This document shows, in pieces, positions 49 through 8,642 of a stretch of DNA of 8,885 nt (position 1 is the stretch's first letter; each line of letters opens with the position of its first letter). A program made the translations under genes and the position numbers. Origin of the DNA: a virus (Duplodnaviria > Heunggongvirae > Uroviricota > Caudoviricetes); the IMG/VR virus record IMGVR_UViG_2609460067_000009. One strand, written 5' to 3'. The notes under the pieces are model-generated. The model did not search any database. It saw nothing but the letters and a program-made list of their open reading frames with translations, and had not been told where the DNA came from.

Positions 49-345
49 TTACTCGTTCGTGTAAATCACGCCCAGTCGTGCAGCCAGACGTTCCAGTTTT
101 TTCTGTTTGTGGAAGTCAATCAGCCGGTCCATCCCCTGAAGGCGCAGTTGCTCTGTCATGATTTCCACGTCTGCCAGCTCTGCCGCGAGGTCACTTTCGC
201 TGCCCTGTCCGTTCAGGTTGCGGGCGGCACTGGCCGCCAGTTCAGCGGCCTCTTCTGCCAGTTTCAGGGCCTGTGCGTCCGGCCCGAAACGCTGCAGGGC
301 CAGACGGTAGAGGGCGGTGCGGGTGAGTTCGGTGTTTCGTGTCAT
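49..345 (-). CDS. MazG-like all-alpha nucleotide pyrophosphohydrolase domain protein
   Basis: 98-aa ORF. EExxE motif (LAEEAAELAAS) followed by ExxD (LAAELADVEIM), the signature pair of MazG/HisE-type NTP pyrophosphatases. Last gene of the co-directional minus-strand cluster. Assignment is from motif recall, not a search. Confidence 0.5.
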   Translation of the reverse strand: MTRNTELTRTALYRLALQRFGPDAQALKLAEEAAELAASAARNLNGQGSESDLAAELADVEIMTEQLRLQGMDRLIDFHKQKKLERLAARLGVIYTNE

Positions 346-354
346 GCCGCGCCC

Positions 355-627
355 TCAGTGCTTCCGGCTGACGGTGATGTGCAGGCCGCCTTCTGCAGTG
401 GTTTCCATCCGGTACGGCACCTCATGCTCTGCCGTGTGGGTGAGTGTGTTCATCAGTACCTGCAGGGCAGCCTCCTTTCCGTTGGTCGCCACAATGGCCT
501 GTGTGGCCATGCTGATTAGCGCCGTCAGGACGTGCTTCACATCGGTGAGGTCGCGGCATTCACACTCGTTGACATAGTGTTCAACAAGGGTTCGGGTGCG
601 CTGTCGTGCTTCCTGTGGGGTAATCAT
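355..627 (-). CDS. hypothetical phage protein
   Basis: 90-aa ORF. Its start overlaps the stop of the upstream zinc-ribbon gene by 4 bp (ATGA, 624-627), consistent with translational coupling. It ends 10 bp before the next gene. Confidence 0.5.
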   Translation of the reverse strand: MITPQEARQRTRTLVEHYVNECECRDLTDVKHVLTALISMATQAIVATNGKEAALQVLMNTLTHTAEHEVPYRMETTAEGGLHITVSRKH

Positions 628-818
628 TGCGAGTCCTCCCTGTCAGGGCGGGAGAATTCCATGACGGGCACGTCTGCCGAAAAATGCTGGCTGCAGTACG
701 GGCAGACCAGGGTGACGCGTACCGCAGGGATGTGGTATTTACCGGACATCACGGCGATGGCGCTGTGAAAACGCAGGGCTGTTATATCCCTCTCGCACTG
801 AATACATTTAAATATCAT
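624..818 (-). CDS. small zinc-ribbon protein (CxxC...CxxC)
   Basis: 64-aa ORF with two CxxC pairs (CIQC and CPYC, about 30 residues apart). Strong GAGGAG Shine-Dalgarno 9 nt upstream of the ATG (minus strand, 833-828). Confidence 0.55.
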   Translation of the reverse strand: MIFKCIQCERDITALRFHSAIAVMSGKYHIPAVRVTLVCPYCSQHFSADVPVMEFSRPDREDSQ

Positions 819-915
819 GATTTAATTCTCCTCTGTTTCCGGCGTGCAGAAGCCCGCGGCGCTGACGTCGGAATAAAAAAGAAAATGTTTTTATTAAATA
901 ATTAACGTGGTGTGT

Positions 916-1446
916 TTACTGCACATCCTGCTCAAAAGGAATTATTGAAAAATCCTCAATGTCGCTTTTAATGGAAATACCGGGAATATTTTTCACGGCC
1001 TCTTTTTCATTCAGGATAGCGTCTTTATTTATTTCCTCTTTTACACGAATAAAGCGCTCAAGCCCCAGACGTCTCAGTAATTCAATAACATTATCCGCCC
1101 CACGGATACTGACTGATGGCGGACGGTTTCGCCACTGCACCTCGCCGGTGGTGAGGTTAGCGAACTTCACCTTCCCGTTGCCGGTCAGTTCATCACGGTG
1201 TGCCTCACACCATGTCTGAATACCGGACTGCAGTTCGGCCATGCGTTTTTTCAGGCTCTCGGTGAGCGGGGCATAACGTGCGGTGATATCGCCAATGGCG
1301 TCATTCATTTCTGTTTCAGCCCTGACCAGTTCACGTTGTGCGTCACCGAGTAGTCTGATTCCCTCAATGACCTCTTCACGTGTCCCCGGCACCCAGAGTG
1401 CTGCTGCGGCCTTGATACGTTTTGCACCTTTTGTACTTTTTGCCAT
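916..1446 (-). CDS. gam: host-nuclease inhibitor protein Gam (Mu Gam family)
   Basis: 176-aa ORF with blocks I recognise from Mu Gam: N-terminal MAK..KRIK.AAA, ETEMNDAI, WCEA.RDELT, PPSVSIRG, GL.RFIR.K.EINK.AIL and C-terminal EDFSIIPFEQ. GGAG ribosome-binding site upstream. Confidence 0.9.
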   Translation of the reverse strand: MAKSTKGAKRIKAAAALWVPGTREEVIEGIRLLGDAQRELVRAETEMNDAIGDITARYAPLTESLKKRMAELQSGIQTWCEAHRDELTGNGKVKFANLTTGEVQWRNRPPSVSIRGADNVIELLRRLGLERFIRVKEEINKDAILNEKEAVKNIPGISIKSDIEDFSIIPFEQDVQ

Positions 1447-1473
1447 TTTTTATGATTTCTCCAGTTGTGCTGA

Positions 1474-1743
1474 TTACCACAAAGATTCCGGCCACACGAC
1501 GCGACAGCCGTGCAGTTCGAAAACGCCCTGACGGAAATATCCCCTGTGGTCATGTCCGGTATACAGATAACAGGCCTTTCCCTGCTCAAGCATGCGCATG
1601 CAATGCGCACTCCGGGAAACGCGGATGACAGGTTTGTTACCCCTGATGGTGATGCTCTGTACATCCGTGTTCGTCGCCTTAAGCGCCATAATGGCTGACT
1701 GCACTTTGCTGATTTGCTGGTTGATACCTGTGGTGGATTTCAT
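1474..1743 (-). CDS. hypothetical small protein (Kil-equivalent position between B and gam)
   Basis: 89-aa ORF starting 2 nt after the B stop, with an AAAGGGG ribosome-binding site. Contains a Cys/His cluster (C..H..C...H.H...H.C). Function is not recognisable from sequence. Confidence 0.5.
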   Translation of the reverse strand: MKSTTGINQQISKVQSAIMALKATNTDVQSITIRGNKPVIRVSRSAHCMRMLEQGKACYLYTGHDHRGYFRQGVFELHGCRVVWPESLW

Positions 1744-1745
1744 TA

Positions 1746-2912
1746 TTAAACCCCTTTGACAACGTCAGCGTTGACCTGTGGAACCCCGATTTCAGCGGCC
1801 AGATTCATGGCGGCTATTACCAGGTTACTGACGGCCAGCGGATACAGCAGGCTGACCATATTTTTACGGTGACTTCCCGGATTGCTCAGGCGGGCACGTA
1901 TGGCATCCACTGCACCGGCGTCCATAATGTCCGTCAGCTGTTTACCGGCCCGTTGCAGTTTGAACGTCAGAAATTCTTCAAGGTTATTGTCCAGAGGCAG
2001 AAGTTCGACCACCTCACAGCGCTGAACGACTTCACGGACTTCCATATTGCGTTCAGACAGTTTTGTCGCCAGTTCCGGCTGGCCAATCAGCACGATGGAC
2101 AGCAGTTTTTTGAAACCGGACTCCAGCTCAAAAAAGCGTTTGAGGTGTTTCAGTGTCGGAATGGGCAGACTGTGGGCCTCCTCAATCACCAGAACGTGGC
2201 TGAACCCCGCCTGGCTGCTGTCTTTCAGGACGCGATGCAACTGGCGAAAACGGGCGTCCTGACTGCGTCTGATGCTTTCCAGTGGTGCGATGGTACTGAT
2301 AATGGCTTCGGCAATAGCTGCTGCCTTCAGGGTTTTCCCTTTCACATCGTTGTCTTCCATAGCGATGATGTATGGCTCGATAACAATTACCGGCGCATTC
2401 TCGCGGTTGATACGTTCAGTCAGGTCGCGGCGCAGCGTGGATTTACCCGCACCGGACTCACCGATGACGGCCATAAACCCACCATGACGGGCTGTCTGGT
2501 ACAGCGCCTCACGCACGTAGCGAATGTCCGGGGTGGTGAACACATCATCAGAACCCTGCATGGCTTCGTCGGCGAACGGGTCACGGAAAAGACCAAACGC
2601 TTTTTTGGTTGCTGGAAATAACACCTGTTTTTTGAGTAACATATTCTCTTCCTCACTGAGGCTCGTTTTATCTGTGGTACCCGCTGTACGGGGCGTGGCC
2701 GCGCCCTGTACAGCATCAAAACTCTTCGTTGTATCAATCCCCTGACTTTCCAGCCAGGACGCAAGACGCCGGCGCACTTCTCCGGGGCTGGTGCGGGGCC
2801 ACGCGTTATGATTCACAATCTGGGCCAGCGTGGCCTCAGAAACATCGACAGCTCTCGCCACCACCGCCTGTGGAATACGGGCCTCTTTCAGTTGCTGCTT
2901 CAGTACCAGCAT
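1746..2912 (-). CDS. transposition ATPase B (AAA+ / ExeA-TniB-like), N-terminal HTH
   Basis: Walker A GESGAGKST and Walker B VLVIEEAH. N-terminal HTH-like segment (IPQAVVARAVDVSEATLAQIV). Start placed at the ATG at 2912, which is preceded by GAGGAGG overlapping the transposase TGA stop. The ORF-track start at 2951 would overlap the transposase by 29 nt. Confidence 0.85.
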   Translation of the reverse strand: MLVLKQQLKEARIPQAVVARAVDVSEATLAQIVNHNAWPRTSPGEVRRRLASWLESQGIDTTKSFDAVQGAATPRTAGTTDKTSLSEEENMLLKKQVLFPATKKAFGLFRDPFADEAMQGSDDVFTTPDIRYVREALYQTARHGGFMAVIGESGAGKSTLRRDLTERINRENAPVIVIEPYIIAMEDNDVKGKTLKAAAIAEAIISTIAPLESIRRSQDARFRQLHRVLKDSSQAGFSHVLVIEEAHSLPIPTLKHLKRFFELESGFKKLLSIVLIGQPELATKLSERNMEVREVVQRCEVVELLPLDNNLEEFLTFKLQRAGKQLTDIMDAGAVDAIRARLSNPGSHRKNMVSLLYPLAVSNLVIAAMNLAAEIGVPQVNADVVKGV

Positions 2913-2922
2913 GTTTCCCTCC

Positions 2923-4542
2923 TCAGTTGCCGTTAACAATGCTGATAACACTGCTGCGGGCCGGTGTGGTCAGCGTGGCCATGACTTCATCCAGTGCGGC
3001 TTCCGGTACGCCGTCCGGGTACTGTGCCGTTAACTGGCGGTAATGTTCCGGCGTCCAGGTAAGGCCGTCGGCGCTGAACTTATCGCGCAGGGCTTTCGCG
3101 GCCTCCACATGAGTCATGGGACGTTGTTCAGTGCGCGGCCCGCGTACGTCAGAGGCCTGACCACGCTTCGGCATATAGGCCGGAAGTGTGGTGTCGTCGA
3201 TATGTTTATACGGGTCAAGCCGCCCGCCGAACGGCAGCGCCTTCGCCTTGCGTGCGGCGGCTGCATCTGCGGCGTTGTCTGTACCGGTAACCAGCGCTTC
3301 GGTTTCTTTTGCCGCCATCTGTGCCGGGGTTTCCGGCAGGGCTTTGTAACTTTCGCCAAATACCGCCGCGCCTTCAGCAAAGCCAAACTCGTTCTTTCTG
3401 ACCTCTTCGACCAGGAAGAACGTCTCGTGGCCGTCCTCACCGGTCAGAACCACCTGTGCCACATCGCTGCGCCATGGGTTACGGGTAATCATCAGTTTTT
3501 CACCAACCAGTACGCCCGGTACCGTTGATACGTCAAATTCAGTGCCCCGGAACGAGACACGAAGTTTTGGCGTGACTTTGCGGAGTTCTGGTGCCGCCAC
3601 AGCCAGTTCACGACATACCTCAACGGAAGGCGCTTTTTTCAGCTGCTCAGCAGTAATCTTCAGCCAGATATCCGTGCGGGTTTTACCGTGGCGGCTGTGA
3701 ACAGCCGTGGCGTTAAAGTGGCTGCGCCATTTCGCGGCCAGCGCGTTGAGTTCTTCCAGACTGTGAACCGGCCGGAACTTCAGACCCGGCTCCAGCTTGC
3801 GTTCGATAATGTCACGCGCCTTTTCCACCTGTCCGGTGGCGCGGGCGTTATGCGGCTTGTGCGCTATCAGGTCGATGCCCAGTGAGCGGCACATGTTTTT
3901 CGTCATACCCGCGGTGTTTGCCGAGCCGGGGTCGAGATAGAGTATTTTCGGCACGCCGTGCAGCACGTCTGCGCCGCCACGCTCCTGCATGGCGTTGATA
4001 AGCACAGAACACAGGTTCTCACCTGATTCCGCGCCCGTCACATACTCAACGTAAATCCAGCCGCTGGCATGGTCGGTAATCTCGTAACTCCACACGCGGT
4101 CACTGGCGATACGGGCAAGGTTAGCGGGCTTGTTCTTGTAGAACTTCGCGCTGTCCATCACCTGCAGCCCTTTATGTCCATTGCTCAGGTAGTAAAGCGT
4201 GCAGAGTGAGGCGTCAATCTGCCAGACATGATTGGGATGCAGACTGGCCACTTCGGTATGTGGTGCAGGGGCATCCAGTTGTTCCGGGTGCAGGCCATAG
4301 TTACGCAGAGCACGGCTGATGGCATCTTCAGACAACGGGAAAAACTCACTGGTGGTTTCATCTGTTCTGCCTGCGGTGATAAAGCCGTTAGCCCGCAGGG
4401 TTTCCACTGCATCTGCGATGGAATAGAGACGCTTACCGTTCTTGCGGGTGGCCTCACGCAGTGTGGCAGATATCAGCGCGGCTTCGTCGCGGGTCAGGGC
4501 GCTGCGCCCGGCATCGGCGCGTTTTTTGCGTTTATCAGTCAC
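2923..4542 (-). CDS. DDE transposase (transposable-phage A protein, retroviral-integrase-like DD35E core)
   Basis: Large ORF immediately upstream of the AAA+ ATPase. Candidate catalytic residues in VWQIDAS or ITDHASGW, LYLDPGSANT and GQVEKA, with the last two about 36 residues apart. Start is ambiguous: GTG at 4542 overlaps the upstream stop as GTGACTGA and is favoured; the ORF-track start at 4647 is a TTG that would overlap the upstream gene by about 110 nt. Confidence 0.85.
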   Translation of the reverse strand: MTDKRKKRADAGRSALTRDEAALISATLREATRKNGKRLYSIADAVETLRANGFITAGRTDETTSEFFPLSEDAISRALRNYGLHPEQLDAPAPHTEVASLHPNHVWQIDASLCTLYYLSNGHKGLQVMDSAKFYKNKPANLARIASDRVWSYEITDHASGWIYVEYVTGAESGENLCSVLINAMQERGGADVLHGVPKILYLDPGSANTAGMTKNMCRSLGIDLIAHKPHNARATGQVEKARDIIERKLEPGLKFRPVHSLEELNALAAKWRSHFNATAVHSRHGKTRTDIWLKITAEQLKKAPSVEVCRELAVAAPELRKVTPKLRVSFRGTEFDVSTVPGVLVGEKLMITRNPWRSDVAQVVLTGEDGHETFFLVEEVRKNEFGFAEGAAVFGESYKALPETPAQMAAKETEALVTGTDNAADAAAARKAKALPFGGRLDPYKHIDDTTLPAYMPKRGQASDVRGPRTEQRPMTHVEAAKALRDKFSADGLTWTPEHYRQLTAQYPDGVPEAALDEVMATLTTPARSSVISIVNGN

Positions 4543-5401
4543 AGATGCCTGTTGGCTCGTCCGGCAGGTCAAATGTGGAGCGCAGGCTACGCGCTGTGCT
4601 TTCCAGTTGACAGACCAGGCCTGCCATGAAGTCTCTGGGGGTATCAATCATGTTTTCAGCACAATATGCGCACAGCGTCTCAAAAGCGCTGGACAGTCGG
4701 ACGGCGATAGCAGATTCCGCCTCAACCGCTAATGCTGTTACTTCCGCCCGCAGCTTCTTAACCTCCTCATCAGGCTCAGGCGGCTGAATACGGGATTTCT
4801 TCTCCAGTCTGGTGGAGAGTGAATCTATTTTTTCATTTTTGTCGGCGAGTACGCGCTGTTGTGCTGCGTTGGTTTCGCGCGCTTCGCGCAGGGCCTGACG
4901 CAATTCACGTACTGACATGCGATCAACGTCGTCAAGCGTCAGGCCGGCAACTGTGCCGCCGTCGGCCAATTCATCAAGTTCTTCATTATCCAGAACCATC
5001 AGGTCGTACAGTTTGGCTTTCCCCAAAACGCTCAACGTTGAGCGTTTTGTTGGCTCATCACCTTCTCCCAAAAACTTCATACTGGCTTGCATCATGCGGC
5101 GAGCAACTTGTGGTGCAAGTCCGAGTTCATTTTCTAAAATGTTTGTAAAATCACCGTGTGGCTCATTTTCTTTTAAGATGATCAGCCGCTTACCCGCTTC
5201 CAGCATAGATTCAGCACTCTGCGCCATATAAAAACGTGCTTCGTGAACAATGCGATCACGTTCATAAGGCAGTCCATCACCAAACTGCTGCATAATTTCC
5301 ATGCGATGCTGTGTCATAGCGTTCAAATTGACATTGATGTTATCTGACAGCGGAACCTCAACATTCAGTTCAGTGTTAACGGGTGATTTGGTGCGTCCCA
5401 T
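4535..5401 (-). CDS. hypothetical coiled-coil protein (early operon, between the regulators and the transposase)
   Basis: 288-aa ORF with an AAGGAG ribosome-binding site that overlaps the stop of the upstream gene. The central region is rich in charged heptad-like sequence (RELRQALREARETNAAQQRVLADKNEKIDSLSTRLEKK). No catalytic motif recognised. Confidence 0.6.
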   Translation of the reverse strand: MGRTKSPVNTELNVEVPLSDNINVNLNAMTQHRMEIMQQFGDGLPYERDRIVHEARFYMAQSAESMLEAGKRLIILKENEPHGDFTNILENELGLAPQVARRMMQASMKFLGEGDEPTKRSTLSVLGKAKLYDLMVLDNEELDELADGGTVAGLTLDDVDRMSVRELRQALREARETNAAQQRVLADKNEKIDSLSTRLEKKSRIQPPEPDEEVKKLRAEVTALAVEAESAIAVRLSSAFETLCAYCAENMIDTPRDFMAGLVCQLESTARSLRSTFDLPDEPTGICD

Positions 5402-5411
5402 TGATTACTCC

Positions 5412-5720
5412 TTACAAACGACTACCTGAAATAACTCGTTGGTTGATTTCGTTAATACGATCCTGTGCACGCGCCATCTCGTGACTGTGAGCCATGGCGA
5501 TCTGTAGTAACTGGATTCCCGGTGCGAAACGTCCGTTCTCTAATTTCATGGCCAGTCCCTCTTCAATAAGGGTATTAAGTGCTCGATTGATATTCGCCGG
5601 GGACTCCCCCAGGGCTGATGCCAGTTCACCGTTAGAAACACCGTTCAGAGCATGACCGCGTAGAGCTTTGAGTACACGTAGGATGCGGGTCCCAGAACTG
5701 GAAATATTTACTTTACTCAT
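5412..5720 (-). CDS. winged-helix/HTH DNA-binding protein
   Basis: About 102 aa from the ATG at 5720. HTH-like segment (VSNGELASALGESPANINRALNTLIEEGL). The longer ORF-track start at 5783 would overlap the upstream gene and is rejected. Confidence 0.6.
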   Translation of the reverse strand: MSKVNISSSGTRILRVLKALRGHALNGVSNGELASALGESPANINRALNTLIEEGLAMKLENGRFAPGIQLLQIAMAHSHEMARAQDRINEINQRVISGSRL

Positions 5721-5772
5721 GTCACATTTCCATTTTTGCAATATGTGATAACCTGTTGCATATGTGGAAAAT
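5721..5772. promoter_or_regulatory. intergenic region with direct repeats TTGCA(A)TATGTG (putative regulator-binding sites)
   Basis: TTGCAATATGTG at 5736-5747 and TTGCATATGTG at 5757-5767. The 10-mer ATATGTGATA at 5741-5750 recurs exactly at 5998-6007 in the divergent control region. Confidence 0.35.
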
Positions 5773-5961
5773 TTATGCCGCATTTGACGTGGGTTTTAAT
5801 CCCAGTTTTACGGCAATTTCATGGGCTTTGCCGTAACGAGCTTTGGTCTGTCCATTGAGAACACGATAGACCTCATTGCGGCTGTAGCCGTGTTCTTCGG
5901 CCCAGCGGGTAAACGTGATACCACGCTGACGGAAGAGATTTTTAACTTGTTCGGAAGTCAT
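5773..5961 (-). CDS. small HTH DNA-binding protein at the Ner/Cro-equivalent position (Ner-like)
   Basis: 62-aa ORF, first gene of the minus-strand early operon, divergent from the repressor-like gene. Excellent AAGGAGA ribosome-binding site 5 nt upstream. Pattern RG-x-T-F-x-x-W-A-x-E-x-G...IA-x-x-LG resembles the Ner/Nlp family as I recall it. Confidence 0.55.
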   Translation of the reverse strand: MTSEQVKNLFRQRGITFTRWAEEHGYSRNEVYRVLNGQTKARYGKAHEIAVKLGLKPTSNAA

Positions 5962-6047
5962 TGTTGTCTCCTTTGTTGATGCAATGATGTTTGTTTTATA
6001 TGTGATAGATTATGAGAACTATTGTTCTCATTGTCAATGAGGTTTAT
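5962..6047. promoter_or_regulatory. divergent early/repressor control region (overlapping promoters and operator)
   Basis: AT-rich spacer between divergently oriented genes. Contains candidate -35/-10 elements (TTGATG ... TATATG), the ATATGTGATA motif and a perfect 8-4-8 inverted repeat. Confidence 0.45.
6012..6031. repeat. perfect inverted repeat ATGAGAAC-TATT-GTTCTCAT (candidate operator)
   Basis: 8-bp arms are exact reverse complements with a 4-bp spacer. It sits between the divergent promoters and the likely repressor start. Confidence 0.6.
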
Positions 6048-6473
6048 GTGAATTTTGATTCTCTTTGCGCGTCGCGGTTCAAAGCTGAGCGTTCGCGGTT
6101 ATCACTCAAGCAGGCTGAAGTAGCAGCCCTTTGTGGCGTTTCAAGAGAAATGTGGGGGAAATATGAACGAGGGGTTGCTGTTCCCGGAGGTGAGTTACTT
6201 GCAGCCTTTGCAAGAATTGGGGCCAATGTACAGTTCATTCTTACCGGGGAGTCATCAGGTATAACTTTATCACGTGATGAAATGGAGTTACTGCAGCACT
6301 ACCGGCAGGCACCATTACAGGTCAAAGGTTCAGTTTTGTCGGCCTTGACTACTGGCTCCTCCAGAGAACGGGCGGAACAGGTTATTCATGGAGATGTTCT
6401 GGGGAATGTTATCAAAGGTAACGTAACCATAGGAACAGGTGGAATAATGAACAAAAATACCAAGAGAAGATGA
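6048..6473 (+). CDS. XRE-family HTH transcriptional repressor (c-like lysogeny repressor candidate)
   Basis: HTH_XRE-like segment (LSLKQAEVAALCGVSREMWGKYERG). Divergent from the early operon. Start placed at GTG 6048, which has a GAGG ribosome-binding site 5 nt upstream. The in-frame ATG at 6012 lacks a ribosome-binding site and lies inside the palindrome. No S24 peptidase domain is evident. Confidence 0.65.
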   Translation: MNFDSLCASRFKAERSRLSLKQAEVAALCGVSREMWGKYERGVAVPGGELLAAFARIGANVQFILTGESSGITLSRDEMELLQHYRQAPLQVKGSVLSALTTGSSRERAEQVIHGDVLGNVIKGNVTIGTGGIMNKNTKRR

Positions 6474-7456
6474 GTAAAGAGAAGCAAACAGTTAACGGGG
6501 ATGTGGGTAACGTTGTCAGCGGTGATGTTACCATTCATAACTATTCTGCTGACATACTTCCTTCGGCCCAGCAACCAATTTCGTTGCTGCAAAAACGCGA
6601 TTTACACAGATTGATGGATGAATTGGTTGATCTGGGGGAAAGTAAGCGCGAGCTATGGATGACGATCCACACGAAACTTAATACCAAAACAGTTAATGAA
6701 ATGACTGCGGCTGATTATCATGGTGCGGTTGAGATCCTTCAGAGATATGCACAACAGATCCAGAATATGAAGGACTGTAATCTTCTGGTCAGCAAAATAA
6801 TGGCGCTTACTGACCCTGGGTATCGTCTTGACCGTGACAGATACTGTCTGAAGCATTTCGGTACAACCCATCTTAAAGGCCTAGACAAAGAGCAGTTGCA
6901 GGCTGTGTTTGGTTATTTTGATGATCTGCTGAATATTCGTGATGAGAGTAAAACTCTATCACCTCCATCGGAAAGCGGTGCAAAATCAGTCGCAACTGTA
7001 CCAACCAGAAGCCGGAAGCCTCATGTAGTAGTGTTGGGGGGAGTGTTAGTTCTTGTAGCAATATTTTTCGTGGGAATGATTGTGTTCGCTGGTAAATGGG
7101 GAAATGCCAAAGCAGTAGCTTCTACTGAAACCAGCGTTTTTAACATTAAAACCAACGATAAAATAATAGAAGATTCCATCCCCGCACTGCGCAGCATGTT
7201 TCCAGGGTTAAATAAGTACTCAGATGATTTCCATTCGGTTTCAAGCTACAAGCAAAAAACGGGCTGGCATACCCTTAAATTTACTGTATCAGCAAAGGCA
7301 TCCGTCCCCGAAAATTATAGTGTTAAGGGCAAGGTTTGTTACATTAACATAAGCCCTGATGGTAGTTATGCTCGGGTTTTGACTGCTCCATGTCGTTCAC
7401 TGCTACTTGATCAGCAAAGCACTCCTGACAGTAAATACCGTTTTATTCTTAAATAG
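6470..7456 (+). CDS. single-pass membrane protein, unknown function (cargo gene 1 of repressor operon)
   Basis: 328-aa ORF whose ATG overlaps the repressor stop (ATGA at 6470-6473). One strongly hydrophobic segment (VVVLGGVLVLVAIFFVGMIVFAG) is preceded by basic residues (TRSRKPH). About 185 aa lie before it and about 120 aa after it, with two Cys in the latter. AT-rich codon usage unlike the transposition genes. Confidence 0.65.
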   Translation: MSKEKQTVNGDVGNVVSGDVTIHNYSADILPSAQQPISLLQKRDLHRLMDELVDLGESKRELWMTIHTKLNTKTVNEMTAADYHGAVEILQRYAQQIQNMKDCNLLVSKIMALTDPGYRLDRDRYCLKHFGTTHLKGLDKEQLQAVFGYFDDLLNIRDESKTLSPPSESGAKSVATVPTRSRKPHVVVLGGVLVLVAIFFVGMIVFAGKWGNAKAVASTETSVFNIKTNDKIIEDSIPALRSMFPGLNKYSDDFHSVSSYKQKTGWHTLKFTVSAKASVPENYSVKGKVCYINISPDGSYARVLTAPCRSLLLDQQSTPDSKYRFILK

Positions 7457-7546
7457 AAAATAACAGCTGAATTACCATGGGATCAGAAAAAAGACAAAGG
7501 CGGCATCATGCTGCGTTCTGAAATTTTAATGTAAAAGGTGATGAAC

Positions 7547-8128
7547 ATGGCAGGGATTCAGGTTATCGCAGGAAGTTTTCCTAAAGGGTGGGCAAGCATG
7601 GGGTTCGGTACCATCGTGTTTGCCAAAAAACCAAAACAAGGCTTTCCTGAAAATATTGTATTAAATCTGAAAGAAGAGCTTTTATCGATTGAACTTGCGG
7701 ATAGTGAAGAGGAAAGCCGTATAGGTAAGGCGGCAGGCGCAGGTTTGCTTGGTGGATTAATCTTTGGTGGTGCAGGGTTGGTCATTGGAGGTTTGCTTGG
7801 TGCGGCGGACAAGACGAAAAAAACTATCACTTTTAAGGCAATGTTTACGGGAAATAGGTTACTTCTGGCTAAAACAGATTCAAAAACTTTTGTAAAACTT
7901 CAGTCAATTGCTGCTGATAATGCCCATAACGCATCTGTAATCAACATGAAGCAAACTAACAGGGGCGATGTTTCTTCTCGTAAACAACTAACAGAAAATC
8001 CACAGCAGCAAGACTTACCTGCGCCCGCTACAACAGTAAAAATGACTGCCAAAGATAAGTTAGAATCGGCTCTTGGGCTGGGAATCATCGTTATAGCTGT
8101 TTGGGCAATAATACACTTCTTTTTTTAG
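7547..8128 (+). CDS. glycine-zipper membrane protein, unknown function (cargo gene 2)
   Basis: About 193 aa from the ATG at 7547 (AGGTG ribosome-binding site 6 nt upstream; the ORF-track start at 7538 is a GTG). Glycine-zipper hydrophobic segment GAGLLGGLIFGGAGLVIGGLLG with GxxxG repeats, plus a C-terminal hydrophobic helix (LGLGIIVIAVWAIIHFFF). Confidence 0.6.
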   Translation: MAGIQVIAGSFPKGWASMGFGTIVFAKKPKQGFPENIVLNLKEELLSIELADSEEESRIGKAAGAGLLGGLIFGGAGLVIGGLLGAADKTKKTITFKAMFTGNRLLLAKTDSKTFVKLQSIAADNAHNASVINMKQTNRGDVSSRKQLTENPQQQDLPAPATTVKMTAKDKLESALGLGIIVIAVWAIIHFFF

Positions 8129-8130
8129 TG

Positions 8131-8154
8131 CAGCCCTTCAGGGCTGTTTCTGTT
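8131..8154 (+). terminator. rho-independent terminator (hairpin plus T-tract)
   Basis: CAGCCC-TTCA-GGGCTG stem-loop immediately followed by TTTCTGTT, 3 nt after the stop of the glycine-zipper gene. Confidence 0.5.
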
Positions 8155-8165
8155 CAGGAGGTATC

Positions 8166-8642
8166 TTAAGGATTATCCGGGGCGTTTTCCTGTTTGCCGT
8201 ACTTCGGAGACGAACAACATTCTGTTGGCTGACCGGTGAGTTTACGTAACTCCTTCATGAGCAGCTCCTGATCGTAAACTGTCATCAGTGCCGCAATGGT
8301 GGCATGCAGTGCATCGGGCAGTATCCAGGGTTGCCGGCCCGTGGGGCATATAACATCCAGCAGCTCATTCGTCCGACAGATACGCTCCTCGCCGTATGAC
8401 AACAGGCCCTGTCCCGTGTATTCCTCCAGCCTGATCACTGTGCCACCCCGTGGCTTCTGCCAGGTCGTCAGATCTTCGCCATTCATACGGCGCTCATTCT
8501 CCACGTCAGCAGCATCGACAATGACGCTGTTTCCGAGTTCCTGTTTCACCATCTCTTCTATCCGCGCCAGTACGTAACTTTTACCGCTGCCCACAGGACC
8601 GGACACAGTGACAGTGATGACCGGATTCAGTGTGTGCGTCAT
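8166..8642 (-). CDS. small P-loop NTPase (Walker A), unknown function
   Basis: 158-aa ORF with a GAGGAG ribosome-binding site 8 nt upstream. Walker A GPVGSGKS near the N-terminus and a possible Walker B VIVDAAD. Convergent with the cargo operon; GC-richer than the cargo genes. Confidence 0.6.
   Translation of the reverse strand: MTHTLNPVITVTVSGPVGSGKSYVLARIEEMVKQELGNSVIVDAADVENERRMNGEDLTTWQKPRGGTVIRLEEYTGQGLLSYGEERICRTNELLDVICPTGRQPWILPDALHATIAALMTVYDQELLMKELRKLTGQPTECCSSPKYGKQENAPDNP

Follow-up and report, generated by a model that had tools for sequence, protein, structure and literature searches.

Two genes lie between the Ner-position regulator and the transposase in the stretch of viral DNA analysed here (the window, 8,885 nucleotides). 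They encode a winged-HTH (wHTH) protein and a DUF3102 protein, and judging by sequence comparison they are conserved core genes of the early operon and not an insertion. The best explanation of the whole, to which we give a probability of about 55%, is that they form a core early-operon pair whose products are DNA-binding accessories of early control or of transposition, and that the copy in the window carries a deletion.

Identity of the element

By its gene content, the window is the early arm of an Escherichia coli transposable prophage of the BcepMu/B3 type, not of the Mu type. The element shares 96-99.96% DNA identity with phage PhiKM, the closest phage, which is classified as Bcepmuvirus, and ~100% with prophages in E. 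coli complete genomes; the region is present in 634 of 5426 E. coli genomes. The operon order is pE, ner-like gene, wHTH, DUF3102, TnpA, TnpB, a small ORF and Gam. A sigma-70-like early-promoter-like site (6009-6037, minus strand, TTGACA-17-CATAAT, 11/12) is the candidate driver of the ner-like-wHTH-DUF3102-tnpA-tnpB operon and overlaps the start (6012) of the divergent repressor gene. In relatives, an immunity-specific palindrome is located between the -35 and -10 elements of the early promoter. No terminator-like sites were found in a scan of the minus strand from 5961 to 4535.

The gene at the ner position (5773-5961, minus strand) encodes a 62-aa HTH protein of the TIGR04111 BcepMu_gp16 family (94.4 bits against a cut-off of 34; PHROG 925, E 1.3e-32), without a Pfam Ner/HTH_35 match. 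At the TnpB position there is an intact 388-aa ATPase of the ExeA/AAA_22 type (1746-2912, minus strand; AAA_22, E 3.8e-20), annotated in RefSeq as 'ExeA family protein'. An ExeA/AAA_22 ATPase after tnpA and a BcepMu gp16-family protein as first early gene are, at the level of sequence, the marks of a BcepMu/B3-type operon. The transposase reads as a Tn552/IS481-like rve protein, with an rve match of 36.1 bits, an IS481 model aligned to residues 26-333 of intact TnpA (below the cut-off of that model) and a PHROG 310 match at E 1.2e-137. The Pfam domains of a Mu-type (Muvirus) ner-A-B arrangement, namely HTH_35 in Ner and PF02316 and PF09299 in A, gave no match in the window proteins, and the latter two gave none in intact TnpA; both matched D3112 A, the positive control. 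The first-pass annotation had measured the gene order against Mu, a choice that does not fit an rve transposase free of Mu domains, a BcepMu gp16-family protein, an ExeA-type B and PhiKM as the closest phage.

The two genes between regulator and transposase are both present as ORFs and co-oriented within the early operon, as had been proposed. The wHTH gene (5412-5720, minus strand) encodes 102 aa, and its description as a winged-HTH protein is supported by an HTH_IclR match of 28.9 bits (cut-off 22) over residues 12-57, together with a match to PHROG 1368 'transcriptional regulator' (E 1.7e-44). The HTH is the only Pfam match, so that the protein is an IclR-type winged HTH only: the N-terminal HTH_IclR of the IclR family is there, and the C-terminal effector-binding domain of that family (proteins of ~250 aa) is absent. 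A phmmer search of the PDB with the wHTH protein returned no match at E up to 0.1. A Shine-Dalgarno sequence, AAGGAG (5408-5413, minus strand; TAAGGAGtaatcaATG), overlaps the wHTH stop codon TAA (5412-5414) and lies 6 nt from the DUF3102 ATG (5401).

The second gene was presented earlier as an unrecognised protein of 288 aa. This ORF (4535-5401, minus strand) matches Pfam DUF3102 (PF11300) over residues 65-173 with 28.7 bits, above the gathering cut-off of 24.4, and PHROG 1748 at E 7.3e-134, with residues 1-285 on profile positions 1-283 of 302. The homology is therefore confident and the family has a name, but no assigned function. PF11300 is matched in 46 of 50 diverse relatives, and PHROG 1748/DUF3102 comprises 1652 clusters at 50% identity (E up to 1e-3). 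We found no functional study in the full-text literature on 'DUF3102', and no assigned function for the wHTH or DUF3102 gene in the literature on BcepMu, B3 and beetrevirus early genes. The proteins have been detected by proteomics in an E. coli strain (PMC9927464). In an RNA-seq study of Fc02 most ORFs of the pE operon are unassigned apart from A, B, gemA and mor (PMC9936078).

A deletion between the DUF3102 and transposase genes

Compared with E. coli AR_0015, the window is missing 209 bp at a blunt join between positions 4545 and 4546. To the right of the join, identity to this reference is 100% over 4340 bp; to the left it is 99.6% over 4545 bp, and the 17 mismatches there begin almost 2.9 kb away from the junction. 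The missing segment contains DUF3102 codons 286-304 with the stop codon, the 3-nt spacer and tnpA codons 1-49, so that the DUF3102 protein lacks its last 19 residues, with their conserved P-x-W tail, and TnpA lacks its N-terminal HTH. Read from the sequence, codon 285 of DUF3102 is thereby joined to the interior of tnpA, which gives rise to both the 288-aa ORF and the apparent GTGACTGA overlap. Residues 1-285 of the ORF are native and are followed by Ile-Cys-Asp-stop, encoded by transposase sequence in another frame. The intact protein has 304 aa and ends in DEPTGNAAPSWLTEPTPQINGLEA, whereas the window ORF ends in DEPTG-ICD, short of the full-length form of ~300 aa with an acidic P-x-W tail at the C-terminus. 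The length of 288 aa, taken earlier as native, is thus a result of the deletion. Coupling had been proposed at two junctions: between wHTH and the 288-aa ORF a ribosome-binding site, AAGGAG, does overlap the stop codon, whereas the GTGACTGA junction is the deletion scar. Because of this scar, the window copy would be a poor template for experiments.

The rve transposase is 5'-truncated (2923-4542, minus strand; 539 aa from the GTG) and has lost its own Shine-Dalgarno sequence, ATG and N-terminal HTH (GAIYDAACAELGMSRATLLRRLKEV). Its GTG is an internal codon, Val51, of the intact 589-aa transposase. The gene caller placed the start at a TTG at 4572 (549 aa). With codons 1-49 and the RBS deleted, the window encodes no intact transposase with an N-terminal HTH, and, provided that the deletion is not an assembly error, the window copy is most likely a grounded prophage, defective in transposition.

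Such an error, in a short draft contig whose real genes are intact (304 aa and 589 aa) and whose prophage may work, is possible, though we doubt it. The junction and the exact 288-aa product are on record on a single 8885-bp contig, the window itself (JFFM01000124.1 of GCA_000599785.2), and one 304-aa DUF3102 form occurs on at least 1000 contigs. The best 40 E. coli complete-genome matches to window positions 4300-5800 all span 1710 bp against the 1501-bp query, and the best 15 matches to a 120-bp junction probe all span 329 bp in two pieces. Both ends of the contig lie within the prophage, and E. coli genomes can have as many as 3 related copies, circumstances in which assembly easily goes wrong. 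Against an artefact, no microhomology or repeat was found at the breakpoints in the comparison with AR_0015, and graph-based mis-joins normally need such shared sequence; the flanks are also otherwise clean. Inactivating deletions are common in prophage mobility genes.

We also considered programmed frameshifting that would join the DUF3102 protein and the transposase into a fusion protein, as in IS3 or IS1 elements, since the transposase frame of the window is open for 35 codons upstream of the GTG and overlaps the 288-aa ORF. This overlap is a consequence of the deletion alone. Intact relatives have a stop codon, a short spacer and an ATG between the two genes; in the E. coli reference the spacer is 3 nt, with a GGAGG inside the DUF3102 3' end just upstream, and some relatives have other ORFs there or gaps that exceed 100 nt. 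Frameshifting was rejected on these grounds as extremely improbable. Since the intact DUF3102 gene ends 3 nt before the tnpA ATG and holds the tnpA Shine-Dalgarno sequence in its 3' end, the two proteins are likely made together.

Conservation of the gene pair

The order wHTH, DUF3102, TnpA, TnpB recurs as ORF14-13-12-11 in B3 and as gp12-gp10-gp09-gp08 in BcepMu, and a DUF3102 homologue is found directly before tnpA in B3, BcepMu, phiE255, Fc02 and KS10. The wHTH orthologues are B3 ORF14, BcepMu gp12, phiE255 gp42 and Fc02_14, the first two with an HTH_IclR match like that of the window protein. B3 ORF13 and phiE255 gp41 are 52% identical to the window DUF3102 protein, BcepMu gp10 is 42% identical, and KS10 gp15 aligns with it at an hhalign probability of 97%. 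In Fc02 the pair is Fc02_14/Fc02_13, in the same order and orientation before tnpA-tnpB, and KS10 gp15-16-17 shows the same module order, although a separate wHTH gene is absent in KS10 and some relatives. In BcepMu and PhiKM the module holds an additional small ORF.

A related-locus search, run on an alignment of 11 closer DUF3102 sequences, extended this picture. Among 80 loci from GTDB species representatives, tnpA lies directly downstream of DUF3102 in 78, tnpB also lies downstream in 74, and wHTH is directly upstream in 73. The gap from the DUF3102 stop to the tnpA start is at most 30 nt in 57 of 82 loci, and the synteny holds down to 29-32% TnpA identity. The loci that carry DUF3102 span Gamma- and Betaproteobacteria and one Spirochaetia MAG. 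The pair is thus the rule at this position in the BcepMu/B3-type lineage, and the inserted module that the first-pass annotation had considered is rejected. It had also allowed for conservation in well-studied relatives with an assigned function; the position is indeed conserved there, but no function is assigned.

These counts also bear on the idea that the pair is an accessory 'moron' module, expressed early by virtue of its location and serving in host takeover, anti-defence or superinfection exclusion. Genes of this sort do occur in the early regions of transposable phages, such as those for exclusion in Fc02 (PMC9936078), and PhiKM has a 105-aa ORF inserted between DUF3102 and tnpA. Accessory genes are patchy, however, whereas this pair keeps its position in 73-78 of the 80 loci and in all BcepMu/B3-type phages inspected, and the predicted fold points to DNA binding. 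We consider the moron reading very unlikely.

A repeated motif in the early region

The motif TATCACATAT occurs twice on the minus strand. Copy 1 (5998-6007) directly follows the -10 hexamer on its 3' side and precedes the ner-like ATG by 46 nt, and a near-copy at the fixed -46/-47 position is found in 13 of 24 distinct relatives, compared with 8% of shuffles. Copy 2 (5741-5750) is within a conserved block of ~45 nt just upstream of the wHTH start (GTAACAGrTTATCACATATyGCAAAAAGGGGAATGTGACATG). Among 35 loci, which range from Escherichia to Photorhabdus, Xenorhabdus and Dickeya, 31 have this copy unchanged, and the sequence on its 5' side is variable. The block may be an operator or a leader element. 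The wHTH leader was also considered for an RNA hairpin (TCACAT...ATGTGA), which is not supported: RNAalifold gave no consensus structure and the 3' half is not kept in PhiKM or Dickeya.

Predicted structure of the DUF3102 protein

The intact DUF3102 protein was modelled with a pLDDT of 89. Long coiled-coil helices at residues 164-205 and 210-249 agree with the earlier description as a coiled-coil protein. A fold search with the full-length model was swamped by long-helix proteins (BAR domains, Raf1, dynein), and the core domain was therefore re-modelled alone. In this confident model an HTH core, at most weakly ParB/KorB-like, is combined with a SAP-like motif, a hairpin of coiled-coil helices and an acidic tail that bears a Trp. 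Searches of PDB chains with the DUF3102 profile returned nothing beyond coiled-coil and SAP noise (dynein, GABA-B coiled coil, ERI1 SAP), and none of 50 DUF3102 members had a ParB-family Pfam match at E up to 1. Of 83 loci, 63 have a P-x-W in the final 40 residues; among the other tails listed, some have a Trp in a different context and some have no Trp.

Two further forms of the family were found. In an IncFIB phage-plasmid, a short DUF3102-only protein adjoins a Mor-family gene with no transposase nearby. The domain is thus not confined to transposition systems, and it may be no more than a transcription factor. DUF3102 forms of ~530 aa were considered as a 'Rosetta-stone' fusion, which was discarded: the N-terminal extension has no Pfam or PHROG match and no similarity to wHTH.

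Discussion

We propose that the intact DUF3102 protein would be a DNA-binding and probably dimeric protein, in which a helical HTH core resembling ParB/KorB DNA-binding domains and a SAP-like helix-extended-helix motif would be combined with a hairpin of long antiparallel coiled-coil helices and an acidic tail that is disordered. The Trp motif of the tail may dock onto a partner, most plausibly TnpA or TnpB, although the choice of partner is a guess. The wHTH and DUF3102 proteins would most likely supply in trans a DNA-recognition or architectural function in early-operon control and/or transpososome assembly. In Mu-type transposases, a function of this kind resides in cis, in the N-terminal Mu DNA-binding domain. 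PF02316 was not found in TnpA of the window, B3, BcepMu or KS10, and the N-terminal domain of D3112 A had 0 matches by tblastn against 89 other loci; D3112 A itself matches PF02316 at E 7.6e-44, in a phage without a DUF3102 gene. These observations, from a handful of phage types, suggest that PF02316 and DUF3102 may be complementary. A bolder version, which we put forward tentatively, is that the pair would be a near-universal, unrecognised transposition accessory of BcepMu/B3/KS10-type phages, a trans-acting module for DNA recognition and bridging, composed of a winged helix, a ParB-like HTH, a coiled coil and a Trp docking tail, that would replace the N-terminal domain with which Mu-type transposases bind enhancer/operator sites and would couple early-operon control to transpososome assembly.

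It is also conceivable, if on balance doubtful, that the two proteins act on transcription alone, in the early operon or at the lysis-lysogeny switch, and take no direct part in transposition chemistry or target choice. wHTH would then regulate its own expression and DUF3102 would repress in the manner of KorB, as a second level of Cro/Ner-like control. This is consistent with predicted HTH folds in both proteins, with TATCACATAT being common to the pE start region and the wHTH leader and conserved across genera and different immunity types, with the DUF3102-only protein beside a Mor activator in a non-transposing phage-plasmid, and with a 'transcriptional regulator' between ner and A in D3112 as well. 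A plain repressor, however, leaves unexplained why the gene sits so close to tnpA in nearly every case, even where TnpA is very divergent or, as in KS10, of a different type; nor does it account for the long coiled coil and the conserved docking-type tail.

Apart from the deletion, hundreds of E. coli genomes have an identical pair among their annotated genes, and the arrangement is already tabulated in the genome records of B3, BcepMu and KS10. The finding in the window itself is therefore of little weight. PHROG 1748/DUF3102, on the other hand, is a well-defined known-unknown that sits directly before the transposase in a lineage without the Mu-type DNA-binding domain. If DUF3102 is a transposition cofactor, this would change the view of transpososome assembly and regulation in non-Mu transposable phages, and perhaps in the related Tn552/TniA-TniB systems.

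Several known systems are comparable. With the DUF3102 genes of B3, BcepMu, phiE255, Fc02 and KS10 as reference, the window copy differs in being truncated at residue 285 and fused to out-of-frame transposase sequence. Tn5 Inh is an N-terminally truncated transposase, and the transposase encoded in the window likewise lacks only the N-terminal DNA-binding segment; unlike the Inh type, its truncation comes from a unique deletion that also takes the native RBS and start codon. ParB/KorB/SopB-type HTH domains may resemble the DUF3102 core, but this would be resemblance and not membership: the DUF3102 protein lacks the ParB/Srx CTPase N-domain, has no profile match to ParB families and occurs in another genomic context. 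D3112, with a Mu-type A protein, has three genes between its ner-like gene and A, one of them the 'transcriptional regulator' and none a DUF3102 gene. Phage Mu shares with the window a divergent repressor and early promoter, a small HTH protein encoded first, a DDE transposase followed by an AAA+ partner, and Gam downstream. It differs in that the Ner-position protein of the window belongs to the BcepMu gp16 family, TnpA is without PF02316 and PF09299, TnpB is ExeA/AAA_22-like, and two additional conserved genes precede tnpA.

Gene order of the early operon

The early genes of the window form a minus-strand string behind a single strong promoter-like site (pE, TTGACA-17-CATAAT, 6037-6009), and no terminator-like site was found on that strand from 5961 to 4535. 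The string contains a 62-aa HTH gene in the Ner position (ner-like gene, 5773-5961; TIGR04111 'BcepMu gp16 family', 94.4 bits versus a cut-off of 34), a 102-aa winged-HTH gene (wHTH, 5412-5720; HTH_IclR, 28.9 bits; PHROG 1368 'transcriptional regulator', E 1.7e-44), ORF288 (4535-5401), an rve transposase gene (tnpA, 2923-4542 counting from GTG; PHROG 310, E 1e-137) and an AAA_22/ExeA-like ATPase gene (tnpB, 1746-2912), with an 89-aa ORF and Gam as further members. ORF listing and profile searches agree with the first-pass annotation that two genes lie between the Ner-position gene and the transposase and that the first encodes a winged-HTH protein. The ribosome-binding site proposed at the wHTH/ORF288 junction (TAAGGAGtaatcaATG) is also real. 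The ORF288 product, previously unrecognised, matches Pfam DUF3102 (28.7 versus 24.4 bits) and PHROG 1748 (E 7e-134).

A cI-type repressor gene (6012-6473) and a 328-aa gene (6470-7456, plus strand) are divergent from this string. The latter overlaps the repressor stop codon via ATGA and is therefore probably co-expressed with the repressor in the lysogen. Its product has a Flk-like N-terminal region (NF007987, E 2.9e-12), a weak match to PF27202, a hydrophobic stretch (VVVLGGVLVLVAIFFVGMIVFAG) and a match to PHROG 10002, a family without known function. The protein possibly sits in the membrane of the lysogen, for example for exclusion or signalling. The interval from the immunity region to the lysis genes holds a 158-aa P-loop protein gene (8166-8642, minus strand; GPVGSGKS; 'ABC transporter ATPase' in RefSeq) and a gene (7538-8128, plus strand) for a 196-aa protein that has one stretch rich in glycine and another, at its C-terminus, that is hydrophobic.

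A 209-bp deletion at the ORF288-transposase junction

The exact 288-aa product (EYB43581.1/WP_050428431.1) is recorded on one contig only, JFFM01000124.1 (8885 bp, draft E. coli assembly GCA_000599785.2), which is the window itself. When window 4300-5800 (1501 bp) was used as query, all of the best 40 complete-genome matches (40/40) spanned 1710 bp, and a 120-bp probe over the junction gave a two-piece match spanning 329 bp in the best 15 genomes. Compared with E. coli AR_0015, the window is 99.6% identical up to 4545 and 100% identical from 4546, with exactly 209 bp absent in between. The product of the intact DUF3102 gene has 304 aa, those of close relatives having 303-306 aa, and not the 288 aa first reported; the gene ends with ...GGAGGCATAA, after which come CCA and the start codon (ATG) of tnpA, here encoding a 589-aa transposase. 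Lost in the deletion are DUF3102 residues 286-304 (NAAPSWLTEPTPQINGLEA) together with the stop codon, the spacer and tnpA codons 1-49, and past the deletion point the DUF3102 frame reads Ile-Cys-Asp-stop from transposase sequence. The N-terminal helix-turn-helix of TnpA (GAIYDAACAELGMSRATLLRRLKEV) falls in the missing segment, which has a weak HTH_8 match and is also where the IS481-model alignment begins. The window's tnpA copy lacks its native ribosome-binding site, start codon and helix-turn-helix, and the deletion most likely disables the transposase.

The GTG within 'GTGACTGA' is Val51 of TnpA. We note that the transposase frame is open for 35 codons upstream of this GTG, into ORF288 (4543-4647, minus strand), and that the NCBI gene call starts at TTG 4572 (549 aa). 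Judged from these alignments, this overlap is a by-product of the deletion and not native, and the junction is a deletion scar specific to one contig. The overlapping GTGACTGA junction had been read as coupling ORF288 to the transposase; it is instead a product of the deletion, and in the intact phage tnpA is probably translationally coupled to the upstream gene via a different, ordinary junction. On the sequence evidence, the deletion may be either biological or a product of misassembly. Caution is called for by an allele seen just once, on one short draft contig, when the prophage family is sometimes multicopy; however, the alignment to AR_0015 reveals no microhomology at the breakpoints, which speaks against a graph mis-join.

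Family and predicted structure of the DUF3102 protein

The DUF3102 family comprises 1652 clusters at 50% identity (E up to 1e-3), with a typical length of ~300 aa. The AlphaFold2 model, built from a 50-sequence alignment, is all-helical and confident (pLDDT 89.1). Its N-terminus is disordered and is followed by a helix (18-40), a compact core of helices (48-146), a short beta-bridge with a helix-extended-helix (153-175) and an antiparallel coiled-coil hairpin of long helices (164-205 and 210-249), consistent with the coiled coil in the first-pass annotation; a further helix (256-277) leads into a disordered tail. Residues 153-175 (LTLDDVDRMSVRELRQALREAR) weakly match the SAP domain and ERI1-SAP. 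Fold searches with the whole model mostly retrieved long-helix proteins, and ParB sequence profiles gave no match to DUF3102 proteins. With modest similarity scores, the predicted fold may be described as ParB/KorB-like, not as that of a family member. A conserved [VA]P-x-W in an acidic context, sometimes duplicated, is found in the tail in 63/83 loci, while of the remaining tails some have a Trp in a different context and some have none. Such a motif is typical of docking peptides, and the deletion takes away precisely this part of the protein.

Long DUF3102 forms of about 530 aa also occur (P0204, P0230, P0239 and P0246), and their additional N-terminal region (about 250 aa) has no Pfam or PHROG match. 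At one locus (L089), a long DUF3102 gene lies downstream of an HTH_35 (true Ner-family) gene and upstream of a PHROG 310 transposase, and a separate wHTH gene is absent.

A 10-mer shared by the promoter and the wHTH leader

The 10-mer TATCACATAT occurs just twice in the window on the operon strand, at 6007-5998, just 3' of the pE -10 hexamer, and at 5750-5741, in the 52-nt gap ahead of wHTH; two matches were reached by 6 of 200 shuffles. Related loci from several enterobacterial genera (L001, L010-L036, L050, L077 and L085) were compared. The gap copy is exact in 31/35 loci, from Escherichia to Photorhabdus, Xenorhabdus and Dickeya, and is embedded in a conserved block of about 45 nt, with variable sequence immediately 5'. 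In 13/24 distinct pE regions, versus 8% of shuffles, a near-copy occurs at a constant distance (-46/-47) from the ner-like ATG, and its position is kept while the -35/-10 operator palindromes differ by immunity type. No conserved RNA structure was predicted around the leader copy. The 10-mer looks like a candidate operator, serving either as a common binding site or as a leader element on which a conserved early protein, the ner-like or the wHTH protein, would act. The latter is an IclR-type winged helix without effector domain, and its proposed role as a second regulator gains some support from this putative site.

Possible function of the gene pair

The literature on DUF3102 and on BcepMu and B3 early genes assigns a function nowhere; in proteomics of an E. 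coli strain, the DUF3102 protein was detected along with Gam and the neighbouring HTH protein (PMC9927464). According to Pfam, the transposases of the window, B3, BcepMu and KS10 all lack the Mu DNA-binding domain, and tblastn with the D3112 A N-terminal domain matched none of 89 other loci. D3112, in contrast, has this domain and lacks a DUF3102 gene. Every DUF3102-bearing element examined thus has a TnpA without the Mu DNA-binding domain. This suggestive complementarity supports our inference that the DUF3102 protein acts as a DNA-binding adaptor, dimeric and co-produced with TnpA. With wHTH, it would recognise or shape DNA for early control, for assembly of the transpososome, or for both.

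A 243-aa DUF3102-only protein adjoins a Mor-family activator gene and tail genes on the Enterobacter hormaechei IncFIB plasmid pFJMB80062_2 (L090, 5899-6630), apparently a phage-plasmid; a transposase is absent from the vicinity. This counts against a role tied strictly to transposition: the DUF3102 core domain also occurs outside transposable phages, and is itself probably a general phage DNA-binding module. That the pair is solely a transcriptional regulator seems less likely to us, though not remote. We tentatively favour, at roughly 45%, an accessory of transposition or early control that acts on DNA. Our confidence in the descriptive part as a whole (gene identities, conservation, position, deletion, confidently predicted fold, conserved tail and cis motif) is high. 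The first-pass observations are thus confirmed in part and their interpretation is supported in part, and the remaining interest is a very widespread, transposase-linked DUF of putative DNA-binding role.

Related prophages and comparison with Mu and BcepMu/B3-type phages

The region was found in 634/5426 E. coli complete genomes, 94 of them at >=99% identity, including prophages essentially identical to the window, and the window is 96-99.96% identical to PhiKM, a classified Bcepmuvirus. A sharp mosaic boundary separates window 4597-6013 from 91-4550: identity to PhiKM is 99.96% on the tnpA-to-Gam side but just 82% in the ner-like/wHTH/DUF3102 segment. Beyond the repressor (about 6013-8178) there is no PhiKM counterpart, and PhiKM has a Dam methylase there. 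This pattern indicates exchange of an immunity and early-control module. PhiKM also has an additional 105-aa ORF between DUF3102 and tnpA. In Apirhabdus apintestini (L061), a Symbiopectobacterium MAG (L077), L055, L084 and L085, mostly insect-associated or symbiont genomes, the DUF3102 or tnpA match is broken, with incomplete coverage and large gaps, which suggests that independent decay of the DUF3102/tnpA module is common.

Among 80 loci from GTDB species representatives, recovered with DUF3102 peptide patterns, tnpA is directly downstream of DUF3102 in 78, tnpB follows in 74, and wHTH is directly upstream in 73; the DUF3102-tnpA spacer is <=30 nt in 57/82 loci. These loci come from Enterobacterales, Burkholderiales, Pseudomonadales, Cellvibrionales, Lysobacter and one spirochaete MAG, with TnpA identity down to 29-32%. 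wHTH and DUF3102 likewise lie directly ahead of tnpA-tnpB in the annotated B3 (ORF14-13-12-11), BcepMu (gp12-gp11-gp10-gp09-gp08), phiE255 (gp42-41-40-39), Fc02 (14-13-12-11) and PhiKM genomes. By this synteny the pair is a core feature of the BcepMu/B3-type lineage, and the suggestion of an inserted module riding on early expression is rejected. The KS10 transposase is of the other (Mu-transpos_C) type, yet a PHROG 1748 member, gp15, 'similar to BcepMu gp10' according to the KS10 authors, immediately precedes it.

The Mu order, ner then A, was the wrong yardstick. Unlike Mu, the window has an ExeA/AAA_22-like B protein and a first early gene of the BcepMu gp16 family. Pfam profiles detected neither the Mu DNA-binding domain (PF02316) nor Mu-transpos_C (PF09299) in its transposase, while D3112 A, the positive control, matched both. 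In D3112, too, three genes separate the ner-like gene from A, so the direct succession is peculiar to Mu. The gene pair here is unremarkable for BcepMu/B3-type prophages, in which it had already been catalogued.
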